From the NCBI RefSeq assembly GCF_054482525.1, contig NZ_CM137006.1: a stretch of DNA of 64,000 nucleotides. One strand, written 5' to 3'. Position numbers: made by a program. Of this stretch, positions 39,001 through 42,000 are shown piece by piece; position 1 is the first letter of the stretch; each line of letters opens with the position of its first letter.

Positions 39001-42000
39001 ACACACCTTGGTAAAATATTTGAATCGTCTGAACAGTGGATTATTTTGTGTATTACATCCAACGCTTGCCCATCTTTTTTCGCTATTAGTATTGTAAAAT
39101 TTCCTCCTAACGTCTTCGGTTGTTTTCCCTCGATTTTCCAACAATTATTGTCATCTGTAATACTATATGGTTTCTGAAATTCTGCTTTTTCTTTCCCGTA
39201 TATATATTTAATATAAACATATGATAATTCCAAAGCCATTTCACGACTATTTACTAAAATTTCCGCTGAATTTTCTTTTCCAAATACTGAGTGTGATATT
39301 GTAAACAATATCATAATAAGTAATATTAGTGAGTTTCTCATGCTCTACACCTATCGAATCTCAAAAGTTGTGGGTAAAACATTACATTCAGAATATATGA
39401 TATTCTTACCATCGGAATCCATTTTTCCAAATCGACCTTCTGGTGTTCCTGGATACCCATTAAGAACATATTTTTTCGAATAGTTAATTTATTTTCTCAG
39501 GAAGAGATTTTATTTTTCTTCACTACGAAGTAGTTCATGCTGTACTTTTGTTAAACATTCGTAAGACTCATCTTTGTTCGGGAGATGTGCTGTCATTCGA
39601 GCATAAGTTGGCTTCTCATCTTTAAAATATTTAACCATGATTGAATTATCAAGGACTGCCAACAACTGAGCTGGATCACTGCTCTTTTTTTGATAGATAC
39701 CCGCTCTTATATAACTTCTAAACCGATCGCCGAGAAACGCCGTTTTTTCTGCTGTATTTAGCAACTCCTGCAACGTTCCTTTGGTTGCATGATTTTCATT
39801 AAGGCGTAGTGATCCGACGCGAATTAAGAGTCTCGCCCCGCTTGGTGTGAATTTGTTATTTTTACATATACCAAGCTCTGTTTGCCAATAATACTCACCT
39901 ATGTCCTCATTCTGATACCATCTCCACATGGTTTTATTATTTAAGACAGGAAACGCGGAAAAAATAGTACCCTTAGTGAAAATGGTAAAGCAATCTTGAT
40001 CTTTAGCTTGTGTTTCGCAATTAGCTATAACACCAAAACTAACGAATATCATCAGCAAAAAGAACAAAGCTCTTTTCATTTTCTTATTCCTCTCGATGTT
40101 CTCTGTTTCATTTTAGCTAAAATTTCACCCAAATCATCTATCCCTGCTGTTGCTGGCCCATCGGGTTTATTAATGTCTGGGAATAAATAGGGTTCTGCAC
40201 AAGTATATCCTGGTGGTAATTGAGTTGTTGGCCAAGTTGTCTGTGGCAGGTAATCACTTGCTGTCTTTGTCTCCATCCCTGGATACTGGGGATCATCCTG
40301 CGGCGTACAAGTCAGATTGGGTTTTACCCACTTCCTGCAATACAGTGTGTAATCGTAAGGACTTAATGCTCTGAAGAATGTTTTGAAAACATTAGGCGCA
40401 CTACTGGCCTGGTCAATAGGATATGGCAGTCTTAATTGTTTCGCTATGTCTGGCAACTTACTTGGATCGGGCGTAGGCGGTTTGTTGGGTCTCGCTCCAT
40501 ATCCGCCATTATTTAAGTGTCCATATTTAGATGCCAGTCCCATTGAATCTATATACTGAACCGGATTTAACGGATACTGATAAAAATTCCATCCCCCCTT
40601 CAGTCCAATCGGATCCTGAGTGATATACCGCCCCTGCAGCGGGTCATAATAGCGGTGGCGGTTGTAATACAGGCCTGACTCCTCATCATACTGCTGACCC
40701 GGCAGGCGGATGAGCTGCTGCAGCTGGTGCGGGTTATCCTCACTCAGCTGGTTACCCCATTCATCGTATTCTGCGTACCATTCTGTTGCCCCTTCCGTGC
40801 TGACAAGCGCCAGCGGCAGGCCGCGATGGTCGCAGTGGTACAGGTGGATTTTTCGCGCCGGCGTGTACACCGGGTCCATCTGGTTTTGCATCTGCTCCAC
40901 CGTCAGGCCGCACGATGCCAGCCAGCGGCGGCTTTCCTCACTCACCCGGTCAGTAAGGATTTCACTTTCCAGCCGGTCGAGCATCTGCACCAGCACCGGC
41001 GGGAACACCACATCACCACCGTCTTCACCGCCGGACTGCTGAAGCGCATCCGCCAGGCTGCGGCGCTGCGTTTTCGCCAGCTCACCGGTGGCAGTTTCAA
41101 CTCTGATGAGTGGCGTGAAGCTCCCCGGCTGATAAACCGTCTGGATGCGGGTTCTGTCGTTCTGTATCGTGGTCAGCCGGTCGCCGTCCCAGCCGTACCA
41201 GGTCACTTCCGGTTTCCGTGACAGCGACATCCAGCCCGTCAGGTCCCGTTCACGCCGCCACACCCGTTTTGCCACCCTGCGGCCCAGCGGGTCGTAAAGA
41301 TAGCGACTTTCGACCAGCGGCTCTGCATATTGTGTCCGCGTGTAGTGCACCAGCCGGTGCTGACTGTCGTAATGGTACTGGTGAGTCCGCTCATCATCCG
41401 TGCGGATAACCCCTTCCGGGATGAGGTCGGTTTTCTCTGTCAGCCTGCCGTGACGGTCATACCGGTAAAGATAGTGCGCGTCACGGGCGATACGGTTATC
41501 CGGCCACATGCTGAGGGTGCTGTCCGGGTGCAGCTCCGGGTCGGGCAGGCGGTTACCTGCCGGGTCTGTGGCATACGGGATGCGGATATCAAGGTTCGCT
41601 GCCGTGGTGTGAACGCCGGTCAGCCTGCCGGAGTCGCTGTAGCTGTAACTCCGGGTCTGGCGCGGGCTGCTGATGCGGATGAGTTCGCCGTTGTCGTTCC
41701 AGGTGTAATCGCGGTCATACTGCAGGCTGTTCAGATGCTGGCTCTGTAACTGCCCGGCAGGGGTGTAAGCGGTGGTGAGTTCATAACGGCCGAAGCTGCG
41801 CAGCGTTTCCCGGTGCAGGCGGTCGCGGGTGAAATCCACCAGCGGTGTGTCGCCGAGTTTCATGCCTGACAGCCAGCCGCTGCCGTAGGTCAGCCATTCC
41901 ACGGCGGGCAGGCTGTCCGGTATACAGCGGTTCGCCAGTCCCTGCGCGTTGTAAGCGTGTCTGGTTTCATGCTGCCAGAGCAGTGCTTCCGTCTGCGGGT

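Follow-up and report, generated by a model that had tools for sequence, protein, structure and literature searches.

The 64 000-nucleotide (nt) stretch of contig NZ_CM137006.1 (NCBI RefSeq assembly GCF_054482525.1) analysed here, called the window below, contains the rhsA locus of an Escherichia coli strain nearly identical to PCN033 (7 differences in 19.3 kb), flanked by yibF/selA/selB on one side and by yibH/yibI/mtlA on the other. At this locus a full-length Rhs gene ends in a tail of 152 amino acids (aa) and is followed by an overlapping open reading frame (ORF) of 189 aa. We consider it probable that the two form an Rhs-type polymorphic toxin/immunity module, in which a type VI secretion system (T6SS) would deliver the tail, the site of action would be the periplasm, and the downstream gene product would bind and neutralise the tail. 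Both have counterparts in K-12, i.e. the tail matches the C-terminus of ybfO (b0703) in 149 of 152 residues (98 %) and the ORF matches ybfC (b0704) in 175 of 189 (93 %), and the pair can be assigned on these grounds to what we call the YbfO-CT/YbfC family.

K-12 ybfO is a 477-codon orphan Rhs fragment of the rhsC locus, annotated as a pseudogene. The two pairs share the tail, the 189-aa exported protein and the 4-nt overlap of the two genes, whereas they differ in their carrier: the K-12 tail sits on the orphan fragment at rhsC, the window tail on an intact 1395-aa Rhs protein at rhsA. When tail and ORF were searched together by megablast, counting a genome if at least 80 % of the query was found, the module was present in 3517 of 5426 complete E. 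coli genomes (around 65 %), usually as a single copy (median of 1 and maximum of 2 matches per genome). The window allele (at least 99 % identical) was found in 283 genomes and the K-12 allele (around 96 % identical) in about 3300, the carrier of the latter being an orphan fragment in some cases and a gene with a full RHS core protein annotation in others. Judged by sequence, the module is the catalogued K-12 gene pair and is not peculiar to the window strain. Between the window and K-12 alleles, the ratio of non-synonymous to synonymous substitution rates (dN/dS) amounts to 0.10 in the tail and 0.26 in the immunity gene, and therefore both are maintained as coding sequence by purifying selection. 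In the searchable literature we found no functional study of ybfO or ybfC, nor did one emerge when periplasm-acting Rhs tails were looked for, mentions of the two genes being confined to transcriptome tables, promoter lists and genome-reduction papers; peptide strings from the tail or from YbfC had no match in the literature text searched, which is not proof that no study exists.

The carrier is a full-length Rhs protein (coordinates of all features are given in Table 1). Its aa 1-1243 match the NCBIfam model RHS_core (NF041261) with 2622 bits against a cutoff of 2000, TIGR01643 YD repeats as well as the Pfam families RHS_repeat and DUF6531 (aa 46-123) are found within it, and the match to Rhs_assc_core (TIGR03696; aa 1166-1243) ends with the 13-residue boundary motif. 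The G+C content, 62 % within the Rhs core, begins to drop at this motif, with 44 % across the tail and 37.5 % over the immunity gene, a pattern typical of a displaced Rhs tip. With a YD-repeat core, a boundary followed by a variable tail of other composition, and a small downstream immunity gene, the locus has the predicted layout of an Rhs polymorphic toxin.

The tail proved shorter than had been proposed in an earlier reading of the window (hereafter the sequence-only reading), which put it at around 190 aa; the upper coordinate given there, 40640, takes in around 35 residues of the conserved Rhs core. The description of the tail as rich in proline and tyrosine holds (22 Pro and 10 Tyr among the 152 residues), and so does the statement that it differs from the tail of the orphan Rhs fragment at the same locus, since BLASTP between the two gave E=5; Pfam identifies the tail of the orphan as a Tlde1 domain (E=5e-7). 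Behind a variable linker lies the conserved toxin core, in which S58, P59, C66, W69, C76, D94, P107, C112, A130 and D134 are invariant across an alignment of 15 diverse members, while D61, Y62 and G109 are nearly so. The core thus contains three invariant cysteines and three conserved aspartates (two invariant and one nearly), and no His, Glu, Arg or Lys is invariant among the 15 members. The tail has no hydrophobic segment or helix (maximum 19-residue Kyte-Doolittle mean of 0.14; grand average of hydropathy, GRAVY, of -0.80). In most toxin members of the family alignment (A4), a dibasic R-K or R-R forms the extreme C-terminus and is preceded by a basic helix of poor conservation. The three invariant cysteines suggest that a disulfide may form once the toxin has arrived in the oxidising periplasm; T6SS effectors elsewhere reportedly depend on DsbA of the target cell.

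The immunity gene overlaps the Rhs stop codon by the sequence ATGA, as the sequence-only reading had noted, and the signal peptide that it had seen on the 189-aa ORF is also borne out. The N-terminus comprises MKR, 15 hydrophobic residues and V-I-A ahead of the asparagine that would start the mature protein, with a mean Kyte-Doolittle value of 2.8 over residues 4-18, and by a rule-based reading (n-region, h-region, small residues at -3 and -1) this N-terminus fits the pattern of a standard signal-peptidase-I (Sec) signal. Among 20 aligned homologues, down to 19 % identity, the sequence of the signal peptide varies and its character is kept in all 20, with small-x-small residues always directly before the first mature residues. 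The mature proteins keep C30 and C175 without exception, C21 and C72 occur together or not at all, and two or four cysteines are found in 19 of the 20, these even numbers fitting periplasmic disulfides. No hydrophobic stretch follows the signal peptide (maximum 19-residue hydropathy of mature YbfC, 0.88), and the predicted fold is a beta-sandwich, for which a good model was obtained within a fusion prediction. YbfC as a lipoprotein was rejected, as the lipobox [LVI][ASTVI][GAS]C fails with D or N at -1 in the E. coli alleles (VIAN-C, VIAD-C). Elsewhere that position is occupied by Y in one homologue, and the distant homologues of loci L006 and L007 have no cysteine there.

If YbfC works as an immunity protein in the periplasm, the toxin would therefore act in the periplasm as well. 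This had been proposed before from the exported partner, i.e. that the toxin acts in the periplasm or envelope, and the proposal is now supported by the lack of a nuclease match, by the signal peptide in every homologue and by the even cysteine counts. The accompanying premise that most Rhs tails act in the cytoplasm agrees with a preprint survey, whose prediction for Rhs and PAAR-Rhs effectors is that they work almost exclusively inside the cell (10.1101/2024.02.26.582050), so that an exported immunity protein would be a minority case among Rhs tails. A Salmonella effector census likewise describes Rhs-linked toxins as typically cytoplasmic (PMC11996579), and the present family may be among its entries under an STox number.

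The pairing of the two genes extends well beyond E. coli. An exhaustive profile search of 1.84 billion representatives returned only 28 toxin clusters, from Enterobacteriaceae, Comamonas and Burkholderia and nearly all of them recognisable as Rhs C-termini; wherever a member is long enough to reveal what lies upstream, it follows on from an Rhs core. Members from Salmonella, Phytobacter, Citrobacter and relatives are 66-76 % identical, while those of Comamonas sp. BIGb0152, of two metagenome loci and of Burkholderia diffusa, in which the carrier is a full-length Rhs protein of 1621 aa, are 28-44 % identical. In every locus read, six besides the window, the toxin homologue is followed by an overlapping YbfC homologue with its own signal peptide; the overlap measures 4 nt in K-12, Phytobacter, Burkholderia, Comamonas and one metagenome locus and 14 nt in the sixth, and the YbfC homologues are 63 % identical in Phytobacter and 19-32 % identical in the four most distant loci. 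Copies of the immunity gene alone were found in Citrobacter, Pseudocitrobacter and an Escherichia sp., such orphans being typical of immunity genes. Since the two genes are inherited together in two proteobacterial classes and orphan immunity genes occur as well, we regard toxin and YbfC as a cognate pair. A separate peptide-pattern scan of genome contigs, made with narrow patterns, gave 10 loci. Two contigs (L009 and L010; 1.4 and 2.4 kb) of metagenome-assembled genomes that bear the labels Flavobacterium psychrophilum and Candidatus Nanosynbacter match E. coli ybfO/ybfC at 93 % identity and almost certainly represent E. coli contamination of the bins.

The sequence-only reading had recognised no motif in the tail, and the remote-homology searches likewise placed it in no known toxin or nuclease family. 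Pfam gave no accepted match for the tail, YbfC or the 15 diverse toxin homologues, for neither the tail nor YbfC did NCBIfam, PADLOC or PHROGs return a match with E below 0.1, and PDB searches with three sequence profiles (A1, A2 and A4) gave chance matches only (E of at least 0.08); over all of these, no nuclease, deaminase, ADP-ribosyltransferase or metallopeptidase was found below E=0.01. A match of one toxin homologue to Defensin_RK-1 (E=0.04) was taken as a chance effect of the cysteine pattern. Assignment of the tail to Tlde1 was rejected as well, given that it has no PF10908 match, no similarity to the orphan Tlde1 tail (the E=5 above) and no conserved His. Among structures, neither protein had a fold match in the PDB, where Foldseek with the tail-alone model, a weak query, found nothing below E=4; a Foldseek search of AFDB50 gave only family members and uncharacterised proteins.

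The lack of any invariant His, Glu, Arg or Lys argues against a number of known activities, i.e. HNH and other His-dependent nucleases, HExxH metallopeptidases, Cys-His amidases and L,D-transpeptidases, Ser-Asp-His lipases, HKD phospholipases, deaminases and R-S-E ADP-ribosyltransferases. A pore-forming helix bundle is argued against by the hydrophilic tail and the soluble YbfC, with the hydropathy maxima given above.

Delivery by a T6SS is suggested because a review describes PAAR-motif Rhs-CT effectors in E. coli, 'neighbourless' ones included, and reports a functional T6SS for PCN033 (PMC6730261), because a full-length Rhs gene with the same tail directly follows vgrG (TIGR03361, E=1.6e-150) in Phytobacter ursingii, and because the module stands beside VgrG, DUF2169 and PAAR-like genes in a metagenome locus (L003). 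The Phytobacter locus (L014, 91..6585), in which vgrG, the full-length Rhs gene with the tail, the YbfC homologue and an orphan Rhs fragment follow one another, is the clearest T6SS-linked version of the module.

In the mechanism that we propose, the 152-aa tail would be made as the C-terminus of the 1395-aa Rhs protein, presumably enclosed in the Rhs shell, and cut after DSMGL; other Rhs proteins are known to cleave themselves after DPxGL (10.1101/2024.02.26.582050). The T6SS spike would export the tail to a Gram-negative cell nearby and set it free in the periplasm, where the 119-residue core would fold, probably with a disulfide among the three invariant cysteines, and damage a target in the envelope. 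Siblings would be shielded by the co-translated YbfC-like protein, which would be exported by the Sec pathway, lose its 19-residue signal peptide, adopt a disulfide-bonded beta-sandwich and, in the periplasm, bind the toxin directly at 1:1, thereby neutralising it.

Several observations weigh against a T6SS-delivered, YbfC-neutralised toxin. Among the ORFs of the window, no vgrG or other T6SS gene adjoins the Rhs gene, its N-terminus (aa 2-20, ahead of DUF6531) gives a weak and partial PAAR match (E=0.21), and the boundary motif, which is of the PxxxxDPxGL type, reads DSMGL, i.e. with Ser for the consensus Pro; P, S or A occurs here among the homologues. K-12 keeps the module only as an orphan and, to our knowledge, has no T6SS. 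The copy in PCN033 (L001, 5438..9625) differs in 6 nt from positions 40076..44263 of the window and has a premature stop at codon 1172 ('internal stop' in the PGAP annotation), so that the Rhs system is dispensable in at least one strain; the copy in the window, whose strain is a close relative of PCN033, is intact, unlike the PCN033 copy. Structure prediction also fails to lend support. AlphaFold modelled the tail alone with a predicted local distance difference test score (pLDDT) of 53, only residues 61-120, three beta strands flanked by helices, reaching 70-84, and the fold was not classifiable, while a C-terminal helix was predicted for residues 130-148. When mature YbfC was joined to the tail through a Gly/Ser linker of 25 residues and predicted as one fusion (A3; 7 paired and 32 unpaired alignment rows), the toxin core came out slightly better than alone and no interface between YbfC and the tail could be read.

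As to the activity, our best guess is Asp-based chemistry on peptidoglycan or a lipid-linked precursor, or stoichiometric blocking of an envelope protein. One could speculate on a resemblance to double-psi beta-barrel or 3D-domain lytic transglycosylases, given the small beta domain and the three conserved aspartates. Tentatively, and with some doubt, we put forward that YbfO-CT may be a new antibacterial toxin fold with an activity undescribed among T6SS or Rhs effectors, a small periplasmic domain which would require a disulfide formed in the target cell and would either attack peptidoglycan or lipid-linked precursors by way of D61, D94 and D134 or serve as a stoichiometric inhibitor of an essential envelope protein, and that YbfC may found a new beta-sandwich immunity family. 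If so, this activity would be masked in standard laboratory hosts, since K-12 and most E. coli carry ybfC.

The missing mark of an obvious active site, i.e. of an invariant His, Glu, Arg or Lys, would also suit a toxin that is no enzyme, in which the inner membrane is perturbed on its periplasmic side by the C-terminal amphipathic basic helix (around residues 128-152, with R-K at its end) and soluble YbfC sequesters the tail. The helix predicted at 130-148 has hydrophobic residues along one face and a conserved dibasic end, and membrane-acting Rhs tails exist, e.g. Tse5 (PMC10684867). However, the invariant residues lie mostly in the beta core and not in the helix. The tail has no hydrophobic segment and YbfC no hydrophobic stretch after its signal peptide, while the immunity protein of a pore former is usually integral to the membrane; a membrane-active tail therefore seems to us quite unlikely. 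An inactive relic, i.e. a decaying Rhs tip and a passenger gene hitch-hiking in recombination-prone rhs loci with no present function, would agree with the annotation of K-12 ybfO as a pseudogene or orphan, with the stop codon in the Rhs core of PCN033 and with the truncated fragments that are common in databases. Nevertheless, we give it little credence, since the dN/dS values of both genes speak for present constraint, intact full-length Rhs proteins with the tail occur in the window, Phytobacter and Burkholderia, and the family is kept across two proteobacterial classes at 28-44 % identity with its invariant residues.

The prediction of intracellular action for most annotated Rhs tails (10.1101/2024.02.26.582050) leaves a further alternative, in which the tail acts in the cytoplasm, e.g. 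as a small RNase-like toxin without His, and YbfC is an unrelated exported neighbour rather than the immunity protein. While the predicted small alpha+beta layout is not at odds with barnase-like toxins, no nuclease or RNase family was matched in the 15 diverse members, and the toxin has three invariant cysteines. Moreover, an overlapping ybfC with a signal peptide follows the toxin in every locus read, in beta- and gammaproteobacteria alike, and no other candidate immunity ORF lies between the toxin and ybfC, which makes a cytoplasmic toxin very unlikely in our view.

On the reading that we prefer, i.e. a periplasm-acting tail paired with YbfC, the module would be among the most widespread toxin/immunity pairs of E. 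coli, K-12 included, yet neither protein belongs to a described family. A periplasm-acting Rhs tail without recognisable catalytic residues would be a promising place to look for a new mechanism of envelope-directed killing and a new target site. The laboratory genomes of HB101 (H41) and K-12 (NC_000913.3) carry ybfC. Derivatives of K-12 and HB101 are probably immune for this reason, which could be the reason that functional screens have missed the module, and toxicity assays of the tail need a ybfC-deleted host.

Table 1. Features of the rhsA locus in the window (positions are those of the window)
Feature	Position	Strand	Basis or remark
Full-length Rhs gene, 1395 aa, uninterrupted ORF	40076..44263	-	between yibF and yibA; ORF reading
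Boundary motif, aa 1231-1243 (13 residues)	40535..40573	-	last stretch under RHS_core and Rhs_assc_core
Tail after the boundary motif, 152 aa	40079..40534	-	ORF reading
Tail residues 1-33, variable Pro-rich linker	40436..40534	-	profile matches of distant homologues begin around position 34; AlphaFold pLDDT <50
Tail residues 34-152, conserved toxin core (YbfO-CT family), 119 residues	40079..40435	-	family alignment
GAGG, putative ribosome-binding site	40089..40092	-	9 nt upstream of the immunity ATG; sequence reading
ATGA overlap, Rhs TGA stop/immunity ATG	40076..40079	-	translational coupling assigned from sequence
Immunity ORF, 189 aa	39510..40079	-	ORF reading
Predicted signal peptide, aa 1-19	40023..40079	-	n-region basic, 15-residue h-region, V-x-A at -3 to -1
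Mature YbfC-like protein, 170 aa plus stop, predicted periplasmic immunity protein	39510..40022	-	after the signal peptide
NTF2-fold ORF with its own hydrophobic N-terminus	38994..39341	-	
DUF6258 ORF	38091..38333	-	
Pentapeptide-repeat ORF	37473..37850	-	
Second NTF2-fold ORF	37122..37391	-	
yibA, HEAT repeats	36175..37032	-	
Orphan Rhs fragment with Tlde1 tail	35324..36133	-	Pfam E=5e-7
131-aa signal-peptide ORF after the orphan Rhs fragment	34924..35319	-	taken by PGAP as the front part of an Imm57 gene with a frameshift

Downstream of the ybfC-like gene, positions 34803..39341 on the minus strand hold a low-G+C (35 %) array of orphan immunity-type ORFs. The orphan Rhs fragment within it lacks, in comparison with the main gene, around 24 core residues just before the motif, which suggests a deletion or recombination scar. 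Around 9 kb beyond the rhs locus there is an ORF of 1750 aa (21025..26277, minus strand).

Among known systems, the nuclease tails of Rhs and CdiA proteins, e.g. Dickeya RhsA and RhsB, have the polymorphic-toxin architecture and the orphan arrays in common with the window (PMC3150448), whereas their HNH or other nuclease motifs, and immunity proteins without signal peptides, set them apart from the window pair, for which neither holds. The logic proposed here is shared by the T6SS effector/immunity pairs Tae/Tai (amidases), Tge/Tgi (muramidases) and Tle/Tli (lipases), in which a toxin delivered to the periplasm is blocked by binding of a Sec-exported immunity protein. These toxins are, however, mostly stand-alone or associated with VgrG or Hcp and have recognisable catalytic folds, while YbfO-CT has no detectable catalytic family and an Rhs shell as its carrier. 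Tse5-CT is hydrophobic, helical and membrane-inserting, and its immunity protein is a membrane protein, unlike the hydrophilic window tail with its soluble partner. Still, Tse5 of Pseudomonas aeruginosa, a pore-forming toxin, resembles YbfO-CT as read here in being an Rhs tail that acts at the envelope and not on nucleic acids (PMC10684867). Rhs-Tlde1, a toxin resembling L,D-transpeptidases, with immunity proteins of the Imm57/Tldi1 type is likewise an Rhs-borne, periplasm-acting tail with an exported immunity protein, as proposed for YbfO-CT, and differs from the window tail in showing no sequence similarity to it. Tlde1 carries a His...S-x-G-C catalytic motif, whereas the window tail has no conserved His. 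Periplasm-acting Rhs tails are thus not unprecedented, the orphan of the very same locus being a Tlde1 peptidoglycan toxin.

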